Shown here one piece after another: positions 1 through 44,324 of a stretch of DNA of 64,000 nt (within the stretch, counting starts at the first letter, position 1; every line of letters begins with the position of its first letter). A program made the position numbers and the translations under genes. The notes beneath the pieces are model-generated. The model was not told the origin of the DNA. It did not search any database and worked only from the letters and a program-made list of their open reading frames with translations. Location of the stretch: the NCBI GenBank assembly GCA_016213015.1, contig JACRCE010000011.1:10586-74585 (forward strand), in the 5' to 3' direction. The stretch is from Deltaproteobacteria bacterium. GTDB lineage: Bacteria > Desulfobacterota > GWC2-55-46.

Positions 1-273
1 CCGCCGAGGTTGACGCCGACTATGGGAACCTTCCTGCCGGCGATGAGGCGCGCCGCGGCAAGCATGGTGCCGTCGCCTCCAAGAACTATCATGGCCTCGA
101 TTGCATCCGGCAGGTCGTCAAACGAAAGAGCCTCAGCCGCGCTTATCCTGTCCGCTAGGTACGGCGGTATGAAGACCTCTTTCCCCTTGCCCTTGATCCA
201 TACAGCCGCCTCGCGCCCAAAGGCAACGGCCTCGGCGGACGACGACTTTACCATGAGACCTATGCGCTTCATG
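1..273 (-). CDS. nadK: NAD(+) kinase, N-terminal part; 3' end runs off the window start
   Basis: The reverse-complement translation from the ATG at 273 reads MKRIGLMVKSSSAEAVAFGREAAVWIKGKGKEVF...MIVLGGDGTMLAAARLIAGRKVPIVGVNLGG, which contains the GGDGT motif diagnostic of NAD kinases. The 6-frame track does not list it because it is truncated at the edge. Confidence 0.8.
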
Positions 274-2777: not shown

Positions 2778-4007
2778 TCAGAACTCCAACTCCAACGCCT
2801 TTAGCCGCTTCTTCATCTCCTCTATAACCCTGAACTCGTCGTCCTTGCCCTTTGCGGCGAAGGTGGCGGAAAAACGGAGGTATGCGCCCACGTCGTCCCA
2901 CGGCACGGACGATATGTGCGCCTCCTTTATCAGAAACTCGGAGACGTCCTCGGCTGAGTTGAACTTGACGTTGCCCTTTGCCCCCTTGGGTGCCTTTGCG
3001 TACATATAAAAAGAGCCTTTGGGCACTGACGCCGAAAATCTGCATTCGCTCAAGGCCTCGGCCATGAGCACGAGCCTTCTTTTGTACTTTGCCGCTATCT
3101 TTTCCGTTATATCGGGATTATCCAGCGCGTACACGCCCGCCTTCTGGATGGCGATGAACTGGCCGGAGTCGCAGTTGTCCTTGACATGCCCGAATGCGCC
3201 CACCACCTTCTCATTGCCAACGACAAAGGCAAGGCGCCAGCCGGTCATGTTGAACGCCTTTGAGAACGAATGTATCTCTATGCCGACCTCCTTTGCGCCG
3301 TCAACGGACAGGAAGCTAAGCGGCGCGGAATCGAAGGAGAGCGCCGCATAAGCCGCGTCATGCACGACCAGCAGCTCATGGGTGTGCGCGAACTCGACGG
3401 TCTCCTTGAAAAACTCGGTCGTCGCCGACGCGCCCGTGGGATTATTGGGATAGTTGATGTACAGGAGCTTGGCATTCTTGAGGTCAACAGCCTTTATAGC
3501 CTTGTAGTCCGGCAAGAATCCCCTCTCCTCGACCAGCGGCAGTTTAACGACGCGCCCGCCGTTCCACTCGGTATGCGTTCCGATTATCGGATACCCCGGC
3601 ACCGTCATAAGCGTTACGTCCCCCGCGTTTATAAACGCGTCCGGCAGCATGGCAAGCGCCGGCTTAGAACCGATGGAGTGTATGACCTCCTTTGCCGGGT
3701 CAATGCCTGTTACGCCGTAGACCTTTTCAAGATAGCGGGCCGCGGCCTCCTTCAACTCCATTATGCCGTTGTCGGCATACCCGCGGTTCTCCGGCTTTGC
3801 GCTCTCATGTTTCAGAGCCTCGACGACAATGGGAAACGCCATCTCATCCGGCTCGCCCACGCCGAAGTCAAGAAGCTCCATGGCCGGATTGTTCTTCTTG
3901 GCCTCGGCCTTTGCCCTCTTGATCTTCTCAAACTTGTATATCTTTGTATCCTTGCCAAAGCCCTTGCCGCCGATCCGCTCGGCAAAGAGCATCTGAATGT
4001 AGTCCAT
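2778..4007 (-). CDS. dapL: LL-diaminopimelate aminotransferase (methanogen/DapL2-type)
   Basis: The 409-aa ORF has N-terminal MDYIQMLFAERIGGKGFGKDTKIYKFEKIKRAK and PLP-fold motifs NYPNNPTGA...HSFSKAFNMTGWRLAF, which are characteristic of DapL. Confidence 0.8.
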   Translation of the reverse strand: MDYIQMLFAERIGGKGFGKDTKIYKFEKIKRAKAEAKKNNPAMELLDFGVGEPDEMAFPIVVEALKHESAKPENRGYADNGIMELKEAAARYLEKVYGVTGIDPAKEVIHSIGSKPALAMLPDAFINAGDVTLMTVPGYPIIGTHTEWNGGRVVKLPLVEERGFLPDYKAIKAVDLKNAKLLYINYPNNPTGASATTEFFKETVEFAHTHELLVVHDAAYAALSFDSAPLSFLSVDGAKEVGIEIHSFSKAFNMTGWRLAFVVGNEKVVGAFGHVKDNCDSGQFIAIQKAGVYALDNPDITEKIAAKYKRRLVLMAEALSECRFSASVPKGSFYMYAKAPKGAKGNVKFNSAEDVSEFLIKEAHISSVPWDDVGAYLRFSATFAAKGKDDEFRVIEEMKKRLKALELEF

Positions 4008-21953: not shown

Positions 21954-21995
21954 AAGCCCCTCCCCTTTTTTCAAGGGGAGGATGGGAGGGGTTGT
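21954..21995 (-). terminator. GC-rich hairpin with T-tract (read on the minus strand) downstream of osmC
   Basis: The hairpin is CCTCCCC-ttgaaaaaa-GGGGAGG followed by cttcttttat on the minus strand. A second hairpin, CCCCGTTGC...GCAACGGGG, sits at 22030-22062, between the convergent MCP and osmC genes. Confidence 0.4.
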
Positions 21996-22087: not shown

Positions 22088-22609
22088 TCACCCTATCCTC
22101 AACTCCGTCTCAAGCGGAATCGGGTTGGTGAGGCAGTAGACCGCAGGGCATCTTTGCCTTGACAGCTCTTCAAGCTCTTTTATCTTCTCCTTGGGCGCGT
22201 CGGCCTCGACATACAGCGTGAACTTGACCTTCTCTGCAATGGGGTTTTCCGAAAGGCCGAAGACCTTTGAAAAGTCGATGTTGCTCTCGGCGATCACCCT
22301 GAGTTTTTTGAGTTGAATCCCCTCCATCGCAGCCATTGTCGCAAAGGTCGCCACGTAGCATGAGGCGCTACCGTAGAGGCAGTATATCATCGGGCCGGGC
22401 TTTAATCCGCCTCCGCCGAGAAACGACGGCTGGTCTGCCTCAAGAATGACCTTGCCGTTTTCAAAACTCACCTCTGCCTTGAACTGCGCCCCGGCGGAAA
22501 GACTCCACTCCCCTTCCACCTTGTTGGTCTTTTTGGCCTTTGATAAATCCTTTTGTACGGATGCAACGGTTTCCTTCAGCTTGTCCACGTTGACGTTATT
22601 GACGCCCAT
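22088..22609 (-). CDS. OsmC/Ohr-family peroxiredoxin-like protein
   Basis: The 173-aa ORF has the OsmC fold, with paired Cys in CLYGSASCYV and a second Cys in the C-terminal half. Confidence 0.8.
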   Translation of the reverse strand: MGVNNVNVDKLKETVASVQKDLSKAKKTNKVEGEWSLSAGAQFKAEVSFENGKVILEADQPSFLGGGGLKPGPMIYCLYGSASCYVATFATMAAMEGIQLKKLRVIAESNIDFSKVFGLSENPIAEKVKFTLYVEADAPKEKIKELEELSRQRCPAVYCLTNPIPLETELRIG

Positions 22610-22633: not shown

Positions 22634-23680
22634 TTATTCAAGTTTCAATTGCCGGCCCCTTGTCCTCGACTCCACCCTGCCGATTATAGCGCATCCAGCG
22701 CCCTGCGCCACAAGCCGCTTTACAAGCCTTGCACAACTTGCCTTTGGCGCTGAAATCAGAAGACCTCCCGACGTCTGCGGGTCATATCCAAAAAGTTCCA
22801 TCGGCCCGCTCACTCCCGATACACGGACATCCTTTCCAAAAGATGCCCTGTTCCTCTCTAAGCCGCCCGGCCTTGCGGCCTTGTTGCCAACGAGCCGCAT
22901 GGCGGCTTTGAACACGGGCACATCCCCTGCCCTGATTACGATGTTCACGCCGGAGCCTTTGGCCATCTCCATCGCATGGCCAATGAGTCCATAGCCGGTT
23001 ATGTCGGTGCAGGCATTTACCTTGACGCCCGTCATGGACAGGGAAGCCGCTTTGTTCAGCGCCTTCATGCTCTTTATAGCCTCGGATGCGGCTGTGGTTG
23101 AAAGAATCCCGCGCTTCAAGGCGGTCGTTACTATCCCCGTGCCAATGGGTTTCGTGAGTATGAGCACATCCCCGGGACGCGCCGTAGAGTTCCTAATGAC
23201 CTTATCCCTGTCAACGAACCCGGTTACTGAAAGACCATATTTGACCTCGTTGTCTACAATGGAGTGTCCGCCCGCAAGGACCACCCCTGCCTCTTTGAGC
23301 TTTGAAAGACCGCCCTTCAATATACGCTCAAGCACGCCAAGGCCGAGCGTATCTGGAAAGCAGACGATATTGAGCGCAAAGGCGGGCGTGCCGCCCATTG
23401 CATAGATGTCGCTCAGGGCATTTGACGCGGCTATCTGGCCAAAGGTGAACGGGTCGTCAACAACCGGCGGGAAAAAATCCAGCGTCGCAACCACGGCCTT
23501 ATCGCCATGAATTTCATAGACCGCCGCGTCATCGGCCGTGCCGAAACCTACCATAAGCGAAGCGCTTTTTTGAACTGGCAAACGGCGCAGAACCTGCGCC
23601 AGAGGGCTTGCGCCCATCTTGGCCGCTCAACCGGCGCAGCTTGCCCAGTTCGTGAGCTTTATCTTGCGTCCTTGGTTCAA
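22634..23680 (-). CDS. selD: selenide, water dikinase (selenophosphate synthetase), Sec-containing, with a non-ATG (TTG) start and in-frame UGA
   Basis: The track ORF starts at the internal Met codon 23617. Extending upstream in frame gives (TTG at 23680) LNQGRKIKLTNWASCAG-U(TGA at 23629..23627)-AAKMGASPLAQVL..., which aligns with E. coli SelD IRLTQYSHGAGC17GCKISPKVL. The GGTPAFALNIV...LAGGHS motifs follow. Confidence 0.75.
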
Positions 23681-23697
23681 GGCTCAAGCCCTTTCTT

Positions 23698-25629
23698 TCA
23701 TCTCAGTGTTCGCACGTCGCCATTCCTGAGCGTAACGCGCTCCTTGTCAAAATATTCCAGTATCTCTATGGCGAGCTTTCTGCCACAACCGACGATGTCC
23801 CTGAACTCAGCCGCCTTTATGCCGTGCTTTGCCTTTATGTGCTCAATCATGGCAACGCGCGAGGCCGCCTCAGCCTCGACGCGGATATAACTGCCTTCCT
23901 TGAGCTTGACAAGCACACCGGTCTTTTGCAGATACCCCAACACCCGCTTAACGTCACTGTCTTTGAACAAGAGTTTCCCCAGCGCCTCAGTACCGATATG
24001 TCCGAAACCGTCGGCAACGATTGCGGCCCTTAGCGCGCGCTCTATATCGGCGTCAACGCCGGTAAGTTTCAATACCGGCGAATGAGAGGCCATTGCAACG
24101 AGATGCCCGTCCTTTTTCAAGACCTTCCGCTCGACAAGCGAGGCAATGACATCCGCAAAAAACTCATTTTTACGGTCTTTCATCCGCATTGCCGCATAGA
24201 GTGTTTCTTCATCAAGCCCGGCTTGAACGGGGCGCGCCGTATGATGCGCTGACAGAGCGCCAAGCGTCTTGCCCTCTATCTCCTCGGCCCATTTATTGCT
24301 TGCCGCCCAATGACCGATTACCTTGAGAGAGCGCGCAAAATCCTTTTCAGGCGCGCGCTCGTTGAGCATGAGGCCGAGCGTTCGCAAGTCGATTACAACA
24401 ACACTGTCAAGCAGACCGCAAATGACATCAGGCGTATCGTTATTATACAGAAATCCGGCATCCGCAAGACGCGGAGCAAGGGATGGCGACGGATACGGCA
24501 GGACAACAATGCCGCCGCCGATGGTCATGTTCCTTGCCGGGTCTCTCAATATGAATCTGTCCCCCCTTAGCATGGGCAAAGGGGTCTTGAGATACAACCT
24601 GCCAAGCACGGCCTTTTGACGCGCAACGGTAGTCCCGATAAAACGCACCGAGGCGAGCGTCTCGGCCGTGAGGTGATGCACCTTAACGTTTGAAAGGAAT
24701 TTTCCGTCAAAAGATGCCTCCTCCACAAATTCTATAAGGCAGTCCGCCTGAAACCTGTTGGCCGGCGAAGCGTTGAAAAAGGCCGCGAGTTCCTTGGAAC
24801 ATACCATAAAACCCCTGCGAACGTCCTTATGTTCAACGCCGGACAGGTTCAGGGCAACACGCTGTCCGGTACGCGCCGCGTACGCGTCCTTATGTGTGCT
24901 TTGTATGCCGCGCACCCTGACATGAGCGCCGGTCGGAAATATCATTGCCTCATCGCCCTTTTTGATCGAGCCTGACGCAACCGTGCCTGTAACGACCGCT
25001 CCAAACCCCTTTACCGCGAATGAACGGTCTATCGGCAGTCTGAACGGAACGTCATCGGAATCTCTAACAGACCTTTCAACGTATCCGGCGATCAGCGCCT
25101 TGAGTTCCTCAATCCCCTGCCCGGTGCGCGTTGACGTGGAGCACACGGGGGACACTGAAAGCGTTGTGCCTTTTACAAGCGCCTCGATGTCGCGTTTAAC
25201 CGCCTTCAAACGCTCGCCGGTTGCGAGGTCGGCCTTCGTTATGACGAATATCGCGCCCCTTATGCCGAGGAGCCTGATTATCTCAAGGTGCTCCCTTGTC
25301 TGCGGCATCACGCCGTCATCCACGGCCACGCACACGAGGGCAAGGTCGATCCCCGTCGCGCCCGCGAGCATGTTGCGTATGAACCGCTCATGCCCAGGCA
25401 CGTCGACTATGGCGATGCGCGCAAGGCCGCGTCGGGTTTGAACGTCCGTGTGTGCGAAGCCCAAGTCAATGGAGATGCCGCGCCTCTTCTCCTCTGCAAG
25501 AGAGTCCGTGTCCATGCCGGTCAAAGCCCTCACGAGCGCGGTCTTGCCGTGGTCGATATGCCCGGCAGTGCCAAGGGTGAAGGTCAAAGGGATTGGACTA
25601 TCCGATGTTTTGTCTGATGATTGCATCAT
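23698..25629 (-). CDS. selB: selenocysteine-specific translation elongation factor
   Basis: The ORF has [11 protein letters not shown] and DVPGHERF G-domain motifs and a long C-terminal extension typical of SECIS-binding winged-helix domains. The probable start is ATG 25629 or 25626; the track uses TTG 25656. Confidence 0.85.
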
Positions 25630-25707
25630 GGCAATTATGTGGGTCTTTCCAAACAAGGCGTCTTATAAAAATATCTTGTCCGCGTCGAGTTGTCCAGCCC
25701 TAAGTAA

Positions 25708-25787
25708 GACGGTTATCTGTGGACGGTTATCGGTTTAAGGATAATTATTCTTTCACCTGCACCGATAATTGATAACCGATAACCGTC
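25708..25787. repeat. palindromic intergenic repeat, family D, copy D1 (GGTTATCGG / CCGATAACC arms)
   Basis: The sequence is gacGGTTATCtgtggacGGTTATCGGTTTAAGGATAATTATTCTTTCACCtgcaCCGATAAttGATAACCGATAACCgtc. Confidence 0.65.
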
Positions 25788-25904
25788 TTTGCTGATTTTA
25801 CAGACCGGCCTTTGTGTGGTAGGATTGAGCATTCGATCGGCATAACTCAAACTGTAAGCACACCGGACAAACCTGACGGCTTGGATAAAGGATAACAAAT
25901 TATT

Positions 25905-27608
25905 ATGGCTAATATACTTTTTGAACCCGGTTCCCCATCTTTCATGGATCTCATTGGAAACGGCAAGATACACGTCGTTCCCAGATACCAGAGGGATTAT
26001 TCGTGGAATTATGAAGAATGGGATGATCTATGGAATGACATTGAAGGCATTAAAACCGAAAAGATACATTATATGGGTTACGTGGTTTTGCAAAAAACAG
26101 ATGACCCGCTGAAATTTTTGGTTATAGACGGCCAACAAAGAATAACCACGTTAAGCATTCTGGCGCTTGGCGTTATCAAGGTATTGGAAGACTGGGTCGA
26201 GCAAGGCGTGGACGCGGCCAACAACAAAAGAAGGATTGCAATTCTTTCGGATAAATTTATCGGATTTACTCCAGCCGCGTCTCTCATGCCTGTAAGCAAG
26301 TTACACCTTAACCGCAACAATGACGGCTTTTATAAAAGTTATTTGATACGGCGGCGCAAACCAACGGCGATTGGAAAGTTGAAGCCGTCGGAAAAAAAGA
26401 TGTGGAGGGCATTCGAGTTCTTTTGCGATAAATTGAAAAAAAGATTCGATGACGATAAGGACGGGGCAACGCTTTCGGACTTTCTGGAAACGACCATTTC
26501 AATGAATCTTGTCTTTACCTCTATTACGGTAGGAAATGATCTGAATGCCTATAAAGTATTTGAGACTCTGAATGCAAGGGGCGTCAAACTTTCAACAGGA
26601 GACCTGATTAAAAACTATCTGTTTGCCGAGGTGGCAAAAACAAGCGAGCATGATCTGGATGAAGCGGAAAGACAATGGCAAAGGATAAACGACATCCTGC
26701 AACAGATCGAACTGCCTGTATTTTTAAGGCACTATTGGAATTCAGCTCATACATTGGAACGAAAAAATACCCTTTACAAAGCCCTGAATAGCGAAGTAAG
26801 AGGCGCCGCCGCCGTATTTAATCTACTTGGGGACATGGATAAGCTGGCTCTTGTTTATACGGCACTTGACAAACCATCCGATACCTTATGGAGCAAGGAA
26901 CAAGCCGTCCTTATAGAAGAACTGTCTTTAGTCAGTAGAACACAGCCTTTTCCTTTATTGCTGGCCGCTTACAAGCATATAAAGCCGTTAGATGAGGCGG
27001 AATTTACCAAGATAATAAGGGATTTAGTTGTCGTGTCTTTTCGTTATAATACCGTCAGCGGATTGAATCCCAATACACAGGAAGAAGCATATAACAAAAC
27101 GGCTATTGGTATCAGTAAGGGAACGTATAAAACCGCGCGCGACGTGTTTAACGGTTACACAAAGGAATTATATGTGGCTGATGAGAAATTTGAAAACGAC
27201 TTTACCTACATGACAATGAACACCACGCGCAATAAAACACTGGCAAGGTATCTTTTATGCAAAATGGAAAGACAACTCTCCGCCATACCGGTTGATTGGA
27301 ACGACAGTAAAGTTACCATTGAACATATACTTCCTGAAAATCCCAATTCCGAATGGGAAAAATGGTTCGACGCTGAACAACAGAATGAAAGCATCTACCG
27401 TATAGGCAACCTTACCTTGCTGGAAACAGGCAAAAACAAAGATTGCGGAAATAAGCTTTTTGCCGAAAAAAAAGACATCTATGCGACAAGTCAATACCTG
27501 CTTACCAAAAACAAAACATGCTTTAACGAATGGAAGCCTGAAGTCTTATTAAGAAGACAGCAAGGGATGGCCTCTCTTGCTAAAACCGTTTGGAAGGTTC
27601 AGTATTAA
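25905..27608 (+). CDS. DUF262/DUF1524 protein (GmrSD-like type IV restriction / ParB-like NTPase + His-Me-finger nuclease)
   Basis: The N-terminal motifs are VPRYQRDYSW and IDGQQRITT. The C-terminal motif is TIEHILPEN...RIGNLTLLETGKN. GC content is markedly lower (~40-45 %) than the ~60 % of flanking genes. Confidence 0.75.
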   Translation: MANILFEPGSPSFMDLIGNGKIHVVPRYQRDYSWNYEEWDDLWNDIEGIKTEKIHYMGYVVLQKTDDPLKFLVIDGQQRITTLSILALGVIKVLEDWVEQGVDAANNKRRIAILSDKFIGFTPAASLMPVSKLHLNRNNDGFYKSYLIRRRKPTAIGKLKPSEKKMWRAFEFFCDKLKKRFDDDKDGATLSDFLETTISMNLVFTSITVGNDLNAYKVFETLNARGVKLSTGDLIKNYLFAEVAKTSEHDLDEAERQWQRINDILQQIELPVFLRHYWNSAHTLERKNTLYKALNSEVRGAAAVFNLLGDMDKLALVYTALDKPSDTLWSKEQAVLIEELSLVSRTQPFPLLLAAYKHIKPLDEAEFTKIIRDLVVVSFRYNTVSGLNPNTQEEAYNKTAIGISKGTYKTARDVFNGYTKELYVADEKFENDFTYMTMNTTRNKTLARYLLCKMERQLSAIPVDWNDSKVTIEHILPENPNSEWEKWFDAEQQNESIYRIGNLTLLETGKNKDCGNKLFAEKKDIYATSQYLLTKNKTCFNEWKPEVLLRRQQGMASLAKTVWKVQY

Positions 27609-27635
27609 AAATATTCGACGGTTACGAGCCAATCC

Positions 27636-28397
27636 ATGTCCATCAAACCCAAGGCGGCCTTTTTCTCGTTCACCTGTTGCGAGGGGTGCCAGCTCATGAT
27701 ACTGAGCTGCGAGAAGGAACTGCCGTCCATACTCGAACATATCGAGATAGTCAACTTCCGCGAGGCCATGACCGAACGGAGCGAGGACTATCAGGCGGCC
27801 TTCATCGAAGGCTCCGTCAGCAAACGTGAAGAAATCAAAAAACTCAAAAAGATACGTGAAAAGGCAAAGGTGGTGGTTGCCCTTGGCGCGTGCTCCGCAA
27901 TTGGCGGACTTAATTGCCTTAAAAACCGCTTCCAGATGGACTATCTAAGGAAAGAGGTCTACGGGCAGGACGGCCTGAAGTTCAAGGCCTTTGAAACCAT
28001 ACCGGCAAGGCCCATTGACTCGATAATCCATGTCGACTACTATATACACGGCTGTCCCATACCCAAAAAAGAGTTCCTGTCCGTCCTGACCTCCCTGCTC
28101 ATGGGAAGCGTCCCACGCATCGTGAACCACCCGGTTTGCGTAGACTGCAAGATAGCGGGAAATATCTGCGTGTTCGAGAAGGGCTTAACCTGCCTCGGCC
28201 CGATAACAAGGGCCGGATGCGACGCGGTCTGTATTACTTACGGATGCGTATGCTGGGGATGCAGGGGGCCGGTCGACGACCCGAACACCGCGGCGCATAA
28301 GGAAACGCTTCTAAGACACGGCCTTTCAGCCGATGACGTATCGCTCGCTTTGAGTCTTTACGGCGCTCACAAAACAAAGACTACCTCTAAAAATTAG
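27636..28397 (+). CDS. [NiFe]-hydrogenase small subunit, group-3 (MvhG/VhuG-like)
   Basis: The ORF has the N-terminal FSFTCCEGCQ motif and distal [4Fe-4S] Cys clusters (CVDCK...C, CxxGCxxxC...CWGCRGP). The TAG stop at 28395-28397 lies within the terminus of repeat B2. Confidence 0.85.
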   Translation: MSIKPKAAFFSFTCCEGCQLMILSCEKELPSILEHIEIVNFREAMTERSEDYQAAFIEGSVSKREEIKKLKKIREKAKVVVALGACSAIGGLNCLKNRFQMDYLRKEVYGQDGLKFKAFETIPARPIDSIIHVDYYIHGCPIPKKEFLSVLTSLLMGSVPRIVNHPVCVDCKIAGNICVFEKGLTCLGPITRAGCDAVCITYGCVCWGCRGPVDDPNTAAHKETLLRHGLSADDVSLALSLYGAHKTKTTSKN

Positions 28398-28654: not shown

Positions 28655-29944
28655 ATGAAAAAAGACCTCCACATAAAGATAGATGAAATAACCCGCGTCG
28701 AGGGACACGGCAACGTGGTCATTGACGTAAAGAAGGGCGTGGTTAAGGATGTCGCTCTTGAGATAATCGAGTCCCCCCGGTTTTTCGAGATGATGTTAAG
28801 GGGCAGAAGATACGACGAGGCACACCACATCATGTCGCGCATCTGCGGCATCTGCGCGGTGAGCCATACGTCGGCCTCTCTCAAGGCCATAGAGTCGGCA
28901 ATGGGCATTCGCATCTCAAGGCAGGCGACGCTATTGAGGAAACTCGCCTTTGCGGGCGAGATGCTTCAGAGCCATATACTGCATCTGTACTTTCTCGTAT
29001 TCCCTGACTTTTTAGGCGAAGGCTCGATAGTGCCGATATTGAAGACCCATCCTGAGATAGCAAGGAAGGGTCTTGAACTCAAGAGGCTCGCCAACGAGAT
29101 ATGCGCCGTCGTGGCCGGCAGGCACATCCACCCGATATCGCTCGCCCCCGGAGGCGTGGCGCATCTGCCGACCGCTCAGGAACTTAAAAAACTCCGCTCC
29201 AGCCTCGATGCCTCCTTTGACGACCTTGAGTTCACTTATGACCTGCTCTCAAAGGTTCACGTGCCGGAGTTCGAGAAAAGGCGCGACTTCGTGTCGCTGA
29301 AGTCGCGGGGAGAGTACGGCGCTTACGCCGGAGAGCCGGCATCAAGCGAGGGCTACGCCATTACGGCCAAGACCTACACGAAAAAGATTCGGGAGTACAC
29401 GGTTGCCCACTCCGCGGCAAAGCAGGCAAGAAGTCCGAAGGGCGCCTTCATGGTAGGCGCCCTCGCAAGGGTCAACAACAACTGGAAAAGGCTCTCACAG
29501 CGCTCGCGCGCTATAGCCGAGAAGGCCGGATTGAGGCCGCCATGCTTCAATCCGTTTCACAACAACACGGCCCAACTCGTGGAATGTTTTCAGATGACCG
29601 GGGACGCGATACGGATGATAGACGCCCTGCTTGAGGCCGGATTGAAGCCGGAGCCGTTGAAAAAACCCAAGGGATGGGGCATCGGCATAGGCATCGTCGA
29701 GGCCCCGCGAGGGACGCTCTACCACGAATACCGGATAAACAGGGACGGCTTTGTCGAGGCCGCGGAGTGCGTCATACCCACGGCGCAGAATCTAAGGGCT
29801 ATCGAAGAAGACCTCCGCGCCTTCGTGCCGCTCATAATGGATAAGCCGAAAGAGGAGATACGGCGTATAGTGGAGACGCTCGTAAGGGCCTATGACCCGT
29901 GCATATCGTGTTCGACGCATATAATGGACGTAAGATTCGTTTAG
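28655..29944 (+). CDS. [NiFe]-hydrogenase large subunit, group-3
   Basis: The ORF has the N-terminal RICGICAVSH motif and the C-terminal DPCISCSTH motif, followed by a short IMDVRFV tail. The first Cys is Cys and not Sec, so this is NiFe, not NiFeSe. The ATG directly abuts the end of MITE B2 and no SD is visible. Confidence 0.9.
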   Translation: MKKDLHIKIDEITRVEGHGNVVIDVKKGVVKDVALEIIESPRFFEMMLRGRRYDEAHHIMSRICGICAVSHTSASLKAIESAMGIRISRQATLLRKLAFAGEMLQSHILHLYFLVFPDFLGEGSIVPILKTHPEIARKGLELKRLANEICAVVAGRHIHPISLAPGGVAHLPTAQELKKLRSSLDASFDDLEFTYDLLSKVHVPEFEKRRDFVSLKSRGEYGAYAGEPASSEGYAITAKTYTKKIREYTVAHSAAKQARSPKGAFMVGALARVNNNWKRLSQRSRAIAEKAGLRPPCFNPFHNNTAQLVECFQMTGDAIRMIDALLEAGLKPEPLKKPKGWGIGIGIVEAPRGTLYHEYRINRDGFVEAAECVIPTAQNLRAIEEDLRAFVPLIMDKPKEEIRRIVETLVRAYDPCISCSTHIMDVRFV

Positions 29945-42453: not shown

Positions 42454-43404
42454 TTACTTCACCTCGCTTACCAGCACCTTGCCTTCCAGCATCTTCGGCA
42501 TCCACATCAAGCCGTGCTTCCTGACGTACAGAAAATCGGCAGGCCCGCGCACCTCTTCGCTGAGTGAGCGCGTTGACAACTCGCCTGTCTTGAGATTAAA
42601 GACGCGCAGGACGCCGGACTTGTCAAACGAAACCCAGTCCGAGAATATCAGGTTGTCGTCGTCAAACCTTGCGAGGCCGTCGAGATAACCAAGCGGCTTG
42701 GTCAAACTTTGATAGCTGTGCTCGCCGCCCTTATACTCAACTACGCCAAGCTCTCCGTTGCCTTGTTTGCCGTCGCCGAATCCCGCCACATAAAGTTTAT
42801 CCGCCTTTTTATCGTAATACAGGCCGTTTGGGCCTTTGATGCCATGTGCAATTGCCTTGTAAGAGGTTGAGTCCGCATCCTGCCCGATGGTTATCATGTA
42901 GACCTTGCCGATGTCGGTCGCCGACAAAAAGAGGGTCTGCTCATTGAACACCTCAAGATCATTCAAAAAGCCGCTCTTCTCCGACGACAGGTCAAGGTCA
43001 AAGACCTTCTCCCGCGTCTTTATATCAAAGCCGACGACCCTGTCAACGTCGGCAACATAGAGCGTATCCTTGATGATCGCCATGCCCTTTGGCGAATTGA
43101 GATGCCCATCCTTTGGCAGATAGTTCCTGTTCAGTATCATACCGTCATGGCCTATCTCGGTTATGAAGCCGTCGTTGTCCTTTGCGTAGTGGACAAGTTT
43201 GTCCCCCATGTTAGATACGAATATCCGCTTGCAGTCCTCGGTCATAACAACTGATTCAGGGGAAGAAAAACCCTGAATGGTCATTGGAGAGACGGCCTTG
43301 TGCTTCATGGCCATACATCCGGCAATCATAATGACGGACGCAGCCACGAGGACGGTCTTGACGAACCTTACGACATCATTGCTCTTCATACGCTGCCTCC
43401 TCAT
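42454..43404 (-). CDS. lipoprotein with predicted beta-propeller (SMP-30/NHL-like) fold
   Basis: The ORF has a signal peptide plus lipobox (IMIAGC). Repeated ...G.D....YV.D... blades suggest a beta-propeller. Its start overlaps the glyQ stop (ATGA). Confidence 0.5.
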
Positions 43405-44294
43405 TCTTGTACGACGTTTGTCGGGTCTTTTTTCAACAACGGGAAGCCCATCTCTTCGCGGGTCTTGAGATATGTCCGTGCGGTGTCCCTTGCAAGCGCC
43501 CTTACGCGGCCTATATAGCTCGTCCTCTCGGCAACGCTTATCGCGCCCCTTGCGTCAAGGAGGTTGAACGTATGCGAGCACTTGAGGCAGTAGTCATAAG
43601 CCGGGAGTGAAAGTCCCTTTTCAATAAGTCGTTTCGATTCGGCCTCGTACATGTCGAACAGTTTGAAGAGCATGGCCTTGTCCGATTCGTCGAAGTTGTA
43701 GCCTGACTGCTCGATTTCATTCCTCTTGTGCACGTCCCCATAGGCAACGCCATCAGTCCACTTAAGGTCGAAGACGTTGTCAACGCCCTGCAGATACATG
43801 GCTATCCTTTCAAGGCCATAGGTTATCTCGCCTGAGACGGGCTTCAAGTCAATGCCGCCGGCCTGCTGGAAGTACGTGAACTGGGTTATCTCCATGCCGT
43901 CAAGCCAGACCTCCCAGCCAAGCCCCCACGCGCCGAGCGTCGGAGACTCCCAGTCGTCCTCCACGAACCTTATGTCATGGGCAAGCGGGTCGATGCCCAA
44001 CTCCTTAAGGCTCATCAGGTATATGTCTTGAATATCGTCCGGCGACGGTTTAAGTATAACCTGAAATTGATAGTAGCGCTGGAGCCTGTTGGGGTTTTCG
44101 CCGTAGCGCCCGTCCGTGGGACGCCTCGACGGCTCCACGTAGGCCGCCTTCCACGGCTCAGGCCCGAGCACGGCCAAAAAGGTCGCGGGGTTAAAGGTGC
44201 CTGCGCCCTTCTCGATGTCGTAAGGCTGTTGTATGACGCAGCCCCTTTTTGCCCAAAACTGCTGGAGCCTCATTATCACGTCCTGAAAAAGCAT
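43401..44294 (-). CDS. glyQ: glycine--tRNA ligase alpha subunit
   Basis: The ORF begins [26 protein letters not shown] and is conserved along its full length. The ATG at 44294 is preceded by AGGAGG. The track ORF starts at GTG 44309. Confidence 0.9.
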
Positions 44295-44324
44295 AGCCCT
44301 CCTTGCCACATGCGATTATGATAG

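Follow-up and report, generated by a model that had tools for sequence, protein, structure and literature searches.

Related selD genes encode either cysteine or selenocysteine (Sec) in the catalytic loop of selenophosphate synthetase. In a metagenome-assembled genome (MAG) of an uncultured deltaproteobacterium, the gene is listed from an internal ATG that lies a few codons after an in-frame UGA. Is this UGA a stop codon, or is it read as Sec within a longer gene, and if so, which RNA structure would direct the recoding? The question was addressed in a DNA stretch of 64,000 nucleotides that contains the gene (the window; all positions refer to it). SelD and FdhA are reported to be the most widespread bacterial selenoproteins, and SelD is listed for many Deltaproteobacteria (PMC1794560). 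A survey of more than 5200 genomes places SelD among the five most widespread selenoprotein families (PMC9312934). Prokaryotic selenoprotein genes are usually misannotated, according to Mariotti et al. 2015 (PMC4561486). With a probability of about 0.9, selD at this locus is a selenoprotein gene that starts at TTG 23680, reads the UGA as Sec and uses a hairpin downstream of it, the distal hairpin, as its SECIS. The features of the locus are collected in Table 1.

Table 1. Features of the selB-selD region. Positions are those of the window; in RNA numbering, the U of the UGA is +1.
Feature	Position	Strand	Remarks
Full-length selD (selenide, water dikinase)	22634..23680	minus	348 codons, with codon 18 for Sec; TAA stop at 22636-22634
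selD start codon TTG	23678..23680	minus	no other start from in-frame TGA 23686-23684 to the Sec codon
In-frame UGA, predicted Sec residue 18	23627..23629	minus	aligned with Cys17 of E. coli SelD (3U0O)
Internal ATG	23615..23617	minus	start in ORF list and public annotation (327-aa product)
TGA closing the selD frame upstream of TTG	23684..23686	minus	57 nt 5' of the Sec codon; same distance in L081
Distal hairpin (candidate SECIS), GGCGCAG-GUU-CUGCGCC	23584..23600	minus	RNA +30..+46; 8 bp with U29-G47 (23583-23601)
Proximal hairpin (predicted), AGA-U-GGGC GCAA GCCC UCU	23601..23619	minus	RNA +11..+29; bulged U14, 4-bp upper stem
Predicted whole element	23571..23629	minus	lower stem RNA 1-8 with 51-59, UGA included; encloses both hairpins
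selB (Sec-specific elongation factor)	23698..25656	minus	stop TGA 23700-23698; listed from TTG 25656
OsmC-like gene	22088..22609	minus	24 nt downstream of selD; Pfam OsmC
Promoter-like site upstream of selB	25668..25696	minus	consensus scan only, 9/12 matches
Terminator-like hairpin and T-rich tail after OsmC-like gene	21958..21982	minus	consensus scan; 10-bp stem, 6 G-C pairs

Results

Reading frame and start codon of selD

Translation of the minus strand from 23680 reads LNQGRKIKLTNWASCAG up to the TGA at 23629-23627 and continues as AAKMGASPLAQVLRRLP... to the next stop, the TAA at 22634. Between the TGA that closes the frame upstream and the Sec codon, the TTG is the only ATG, GTG or TTG. 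It is placed 51 nt (17 codons) 5' of the Sec codon and 17 nt past the selB stop, and a Shine-Dalgarno-like run, AAAGGG, ends 8 nt upstream of it. Two Cys homologues (P0003 and P0005) begin at the position matching this TTG. MNQGRKIKLT and MDQGRKIKLT are the first residues of Cys homologues. The N-termini of the full-length Cys homologues, MNQGRKIKLTDWANCAGCAAK and MDQGRKIKLTEWASCAGCAAK, match the extension from the TTG residue for residue. A further ATG (23701-23699), which overlaps the selB stop, was considered as the start and ruled out, as the TGA at 23686 follows five codons later. This ATG, within the sequence ATGA, opens a 5-codon mini-ORF (23684-23701, minus strand) whose TGA lies two codons before the selD TTG. 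The closest relative, locus L081, also has a short ATG..TGA mini-ORF (about 3868-3876), and its TGA is likewise 57 nt upstream of the Sec codon. The mini-ORF may be due to chance, or it may be related to translational coupling.

The start at ATG 23617 is given both in the ORF list and in the public record. The latter is a 327-aa protein named SelD from a Deltaproteobacteria bacterium MAG (P0001), 100% identical in the protein search. Most other matches in the protein search, with 320-329 aa and starts at varied internal Met residues, bear the hallmark of truncated Sec forms. At the position of the internal ATG, the relatives have I, L, V or M (AAKIG, ASKVG, AAKLG); as Met22 is variable, the internal ATG is not a conserved start. 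Gene callers that misread the UGA as a stop drop the first 21 codons of selD. Thus the 327-aa public form is an artefact of the UGA taken as a stop, and the catalytic loop is missing from it. These observations bear out the original prediction in several respects: the annotated frame starts at an internal Met, its in-frame extension restores the conserved N-terminus, TTG 23680 is the sole start available after selB, and automated pipelines truncate the gene.

The residue at the UGA and its state in relatives

The extended protein matched the SelD equivalog model TIGR00476 of NCBIfam with 372.6 bits (cut-off 125) over residues 8-313, the N-terminal extension being included in the match, and NF002098 with 321.1 bits (cut-off 299). 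The domains AIRS (PF00586) and AIRS_C (PF02769) are precomputed for the identical protein P0001. Structures of SelD from E. coli and A. aeolicus match the extended protein at E values of 1e-63 to 1e-66. In the alignment with E. coli SelD 3U0O (E 2e-63), residues 6-336 are set against residue 5/6 to about 335, and the N-terminus is gapless. CAG-U-AAK stands opposite GAG-C-GCK of 3U0O without a gap, so that U18 falls on Cys17, as had been predicted, and K21 falls on Lys20, three residues after the Sec position. Both Cys17 and Lys20 of E. coli SelD are required for activity. Judged from sequence, the product is a selenophosphate synthetase with a predicted Sec at the equivalent of the catalytic Cys17, in the glycine-rich N-terminal loop.

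For comparison at the DNA level, 160 loci from genomes and metagenomes were sampled, together with L081. The codon aligned with the TGA of the window is TGA in 102 of 157 related selD loci and TGT or TGC in the other 55, so that alignment with Sec-containing relatives agrees with the original assignment. A start codon is present between the preceding in-frame stop and the UGA in every Sec form with a readable upstream region. The usual distance from these starts to the Sec codon is 51 or 54 nt. Most loci use ATG, and L081 and L082 use TTG; the distance of 51 nt is found with the TTG of L081 and L082 and with the ATG of L051 and L003. L081, with 86% amino acid identity in SelD, retains the TTG, the TGA 57 nt before the Sec codon, the UGA, the hairpin and the gene order selB-selD-OsmC-like.

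A conserved hairpin downstream of the UGA

The distal hairpin begins 26 nt after the UGA and consists of a perfect 7-bp stem and a loop of three nucleotides, G37 U38 U39. With the additional U-G pair (8 bp), it folds at -13.0 kcal/mol (z -3.6). Perfect 7-bp hairpins with a loop of 3-10 nt number 88 in the window, and about 0.03 of them would be expected by chance within the range of positions permitted downstream of any one codon. The hairpin by itself is only mildly unlikely and constitutes weak evidence, and the weight rests on the comparative data.

The comparison comprised 95 Sec forms and 47 Cys forms; the codons after the UGA align without gaps, and positions are directly comparable. Two classes of hairpin were seen. 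In class B, the type of the window, positions +30..36 pair with +40..46 around a loop that starts at +37 and has the sequence GUN in 35 of 36 cases. At least six of the seven pairs are formed in 36/95 Sec forms and 1/47 Cys forms, and all seven in 31/95 and 0/47, respectively (Fisher p 6e-7 for the fully paired stem). In class A, +16..23 pair with +27..34 around a loop at +24, mostly GGA; this arrangement is present in 41 of the 95 Sec forms and 2 of the 47 Cys forms. When the classes were combined, one or the other was found in 77/95 Sec forms against 3/47 Cys forms (p 2e-18), and 18 of the 95 Sec forms have a hairpin at neither position.

The pairing of class B is accompanied by covariation. 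Over all 95 Sec sequences its covariation score was 0.277, compared with 0.152 in shuffles, where the observed value was reached in 0 of 500, and with at most 0.155 in slid controls with the partners moved by 1-3 columns. On the relatives sharing the class B stem, RNAalifold predicted exactly the distal hairpin and no other structure; this set had been selected by pairing, which makes its 98% pairing circular, and the independent evidence from class B consists only of the diversity of pair types and the contrast between Sec and Cys forms. Changes on both sides, i.e. compensatory ones, occur at five of the seven stem pairs, and at one stem position the pair is GC in 16, CG in 11, UA in 3 and AU in 1, counts which overstate the number of independent events because the sequences are related.

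Could the stem be a by-product of protein conservation? The encoded peptide itself covaries with the class B stem (AQVLR, AQVLG, MQVLH, TQVLS, SQVLR). When the peptide of the window was recoded synonymously with the codon usage of the window, all seven pairs were obtained in 1.0% of trials. Where the peptide permits full pairing, the stem is realised in 31 of 36 Sec forms and in none of nine Cys forms. Both results make it unlikely that the hairpin merely follows from conservation of the protein.

Thirty class B sequences, the window and L081 being excluded, were used for a covariance model, which matched 23629-23570 with 52.9 bits and nothing else credible in the window; the model also picks up coding-sequence homology, and the match shows class membership rather than structure per se. 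No SECIS family of Rfam was matched, either at gathering thresholds or at E values up to 10 on 23480-23720. In Rfam, the hairpin matched only a model of a trypanosomatid snoRNA, a meaningless result that was discarded. In the bSECISearch model, the stem has 4 bp or more, and the loop, of 3-14 nt, is separated from the UGA by 16-37 nt. The distal hairpin, with a stem of 7-8 bp and the loop GUU located 33 nt after the UGA, is within these limits. The hairpin had been proposed as a candidate apical part of a SECIS. It is present at the position and distance given for it, and its consensus fold, its compensatory changes and its near absence from Cys forms speak for that proposal.

The proximal hairpin and the lower stem

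Two further structures, missed in the original prediction, are seen when the 60 nt from the UGA are folded as a single sequence. In the minimum free energy (MFE) structure (-30.3 kcal/mol, z -3.1), the UGA is part of a lower stem, and a proximal hairpin precedes the distal one. The lower stem and the proximal hairpin are single-sequence predictions only. In the register of the window, the lower stem is 43% paired in relatives and is devoid of covariation support there.

These structures bear on the question of which hairpin SelB would recognize. The gene could encode Sec while the SelB-binding element is the proximal hairpin, or both hairpins together. The E. coli fdhF SECIS has its loop at +22..+25 and a bulged U17. 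The proximal hairpin resembles it in position, with its loop at +19..+22, and in shape, as its upper stem of 4 bp has a bulged U on the 5' side. Its folding energy is -10.1 kcal/mol (z -3.4), and L081 keeps it through a U-G pair. In addition, the region +10..+30 is more stable in the Sec forms of class B (-5.9 kcal/mol) than in the Cys forms (-2.8 kcal/mol; p 3e-8). Sec and Cys forms are distinguished by the specific hairpins alone, and not by the folding energy of the whole +1..+60 (p 0.69). Against assigning SelB binding to the proximal hairpin, its register is not conserved (44% paired in relatives, and absent from the RNAalifold prediction), its loop GCAA has no G-U dinucleotide, and the strong Sec-specific conservation and the GUN loop belong to the distal hairpin. 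We therefore consider a SelB-binding proximal hairpin quite unlikely and retain the distal hairpin as the candidate SECIS, while a proximal hairpin of variable register may form part of the element.

The UGA as a stop or as a standard codon

If the UGA were a real stop, selD would be either a pseudogene that arose by a TGC-to-TGA change, or a gene whose true product is the 327-aa protein from ATG 23617. This is the form given by the public annotation and the mechanical ORF list. Moreover, neither tRNA-Sec nor SelA is encoded nearby: ARAGORN and Rfam scans of the 64-kb window detected no tRNA-Sec, only tRNA-Glu and tRNA-Leu, and no SelA domain was found among the 43 ORFs scanned across the window, in line with the original statement that selA and selC are not in it. 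The 17 codons before the UGA are, however, conserved at the protein level with the Cys homologues. UGA is the majority state in relatives and is followed by a Sec-specific hairpin, and an intact selB is kept next door. The 327-aa form, for its part, would be without the loop that bears the Cys17 and Lys20 equivalents, and would start at a Met that is not conserved in relatives. A real stop is thus very improbable.

Of 36 domain-supported genes in the window, 16 end in TGA, selB among them, which makes TGA the most frequent ordinary stop. The code is therefore standard, and the UGA of selD needs local recoding. Many other TGA-interrupted frames in the window are chance cases; besides selD, none is in a domain-supported gene. 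Reading of the UGA as a standard amino acid, by a reassigned code (Trp or Gly) or near-cognate read-through, is close to negligible: Trp does appear at the Sec position in two database entries, P0021 and P0118 (GGWAAK, SGWAAK), but the loci L107 and L108, which match P0021, have a plain TGA there, so that these are gene-caller artefacts, apparently of a TGA=Trp table, and the TGA of selB stands where that protein has been matched to the end of its family profile.

Operon context and neighbouring genes

SelB matched TIGR00475 with 342.7 bits (cut-off 242) over profile positions 3-580 of 581, i.e. at full length; its true start may be an ATG a few codons into the listed frame. The winged-helix domain of SelB in Pfam is present in the L081 homologue. 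A gap of 17 nt from selB to selD, the promoter-like site upstream of selB and the terminator-like hairpin after the OsmC-like gene suggest that selB and selD are probably on one transcript, the OsmC-like gene probably being the last gene of the operon. The adjacency of selB and selD recurs in the closest relatives, consistent with the predicted co-operonic arrangement. Among the sampled loci, only the closest relatives have the complete arrangement selB-selD-osmC-like, the OsmC-like gene following selD in L081 (4948-5466), L082 (4405-4923) and L084 (3180-3680).

The OsmC-like protein contains Cys rather than Sec, and its score against the NCBIfam model 'OsmC-related (seleno)protein' (NF041052) was 70.6, short of the cut-off of 95. 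It is better conserved than SelD: its identity to the homologues in L081, L082 and L084 is 92, 79 and 74%, respectively, compared with 86, 55 and 53% for SelD. A functional link of this protein to selenium handling is possible.

Other genes of the window were noted in passing. A low-GC stretch (24001-28000, GC 0.487) contains a GmrSD-family restriction endonuclease gene (25905-27608, plus strand), with selB on one side of it and divergently oriented hydrogenase genes on the other. Since the gap from selB to the hydrogenase genes is only 228 nt in L081, the GmrSD gene looks like an inserted defence gene. The NiFe hydrogenase small and large subunits are encoded at 27636-28397 and 28655-29944 (plus strand), with a 258-nt ORF-free gap between them. 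The large subunit was considered as a [NiFeSe] selenoenzyme and rejected, as it ends in DPCISCSTH, the Cys form, despite the Pfam name NiFeSe_Hases. Elsewhere, a 316-aa ORF (42454-43404, minus strand) without a Pfam match at E 1e-5 is directly downstream of glyQ (43401-44309) with a 4-nt overlap, and there is no room for a full-length glyS downstream of glyQ.

Discussion

The best-supported reading of the locus is standard bacterial insertion of Sec, with the following course of events. Translation of selD would start at TTG 23680, 17 nt past the selB stop. In the mRNA just 3' of the UGA, the distal hairpin (23600-23584) would present its apical loop containing G and U, to which SelB with GTP and Sec-tRNA(Sec) would bind. 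SelB would then deliver Sec-tRNA(Sec) to the ribosome at the UGA, and Sec would be inserted for codon 18, within the catalytic loop of SelD. The proximal hairpin (23619-23601) and the UGA-containing lower stem may draw the distal loop nearer to the ribosome. The reading frame, the homology, the alignment of Sec with Cys, the conservation of the start and the covarying hairpin are observed in the sequences; SelB binding to the distal hairpin, co-transcription with selB and selenium incorporation at the UGA are predicted.

For this gene, the outcome is a correction of annotation and not a discovery, as Sec-containing SelD and lineage-specific SECIS shapes have already been published; the case opens no new question. 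The corrected SelD, translated from the TTG, is 348 residues long with a predicted Sec at residue 18, compared with a 327-aa public record without the catalytic loop. The correction marks an uncultured organism as a probable Sec user, and other UGA-interrupted genes are therefore expected elsewhere in its genome. The locus is also a further clean example of an RNA hairpin that constrains the codons, and even the amino acids, of a coding stretch.

How does selD of the window compare with known systems? With E. coli SelD (PDB 3U0O) it shares the fold family and length, the N-terminal loop and Lys20 included; the E. coli enzyme has Cys17 and needs no recoding, whereas the present gene has a predicted Sec. 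With the bacterial Sec-SelD genes of Deltaproteobacteria, Clostridia and Pasteurellales it shares the UGA at the Cys17 equivalent, a SECIS-like structure downstream within the coding sequence and frequent mis-annotation. Nothing essential sets it apart from them; the present copy has a TTG start and the arrangement selB-selD-osmC-like.

Models of the bSECIS of Sec-SelD by lineage are given in Supplementary S6 (Fig. SM6.1) of Mariotti et al. 2015 (PMC4561486). The proteobacterial models have two nested stems with an apex of 3-4 nt, stem 2 of the deltaproteobacterial model being within stem 1; in the Clostridiales model, stem 2 is downstream of stem 1, and a further UGA-containing stem is often predicted in these elements (PMC4561486). 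Classes A and B are consistent with these lineage-specific descriptions (PMC4561486). In the MFE structure, the present gene resembles the Clostridiales model in that the UGA is followed by two hairpins in succession, of which the second has an apex of 3-4 nt. The nested deltaproteobacterial model is of the class A type (loop at +24), unlike the present gene, though the MAG is labelled Deltaproteobacteria. A Clostridiales-type order of hairpins in a MAG so labelled is a minor curiosity. One could imagine that the selB-selD-osmC-like module, with its SECIS of the Clostridiales type and not of the sampled deltaproteobacterial nested type, is a horizontally moved cassette for selenium utilisation, with the closely linked and unusually well-conserved OsmC-like protein as an undescribed selenium-handling partner; we regard this as unlikely.

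The best-characterized likeness is to the SECIS of E. coli fdhF, also a stem-loop located 3' of the UGA within the coding sequence. The apical sequence of fdhF is CA-GGU-C-UG, with the loop 18 nt after the UGA; its minimal element has a bulged U 5' of the upper stem and about 11 nt from the UGA to the hairpin. In the present gene, GCA-GGUU-CUGC resembles this apex, with G and U in the loop. The two differ in that the loop is here 33 nt after the UGA, in that the distal stem is perfect and the only bulged U is in the proximal hairpin, and in that the distal hairpin is separated from the UGA by a second hairpin. By analogy, the distal hairpin would work like the fdhF element without being of the same minimal type.
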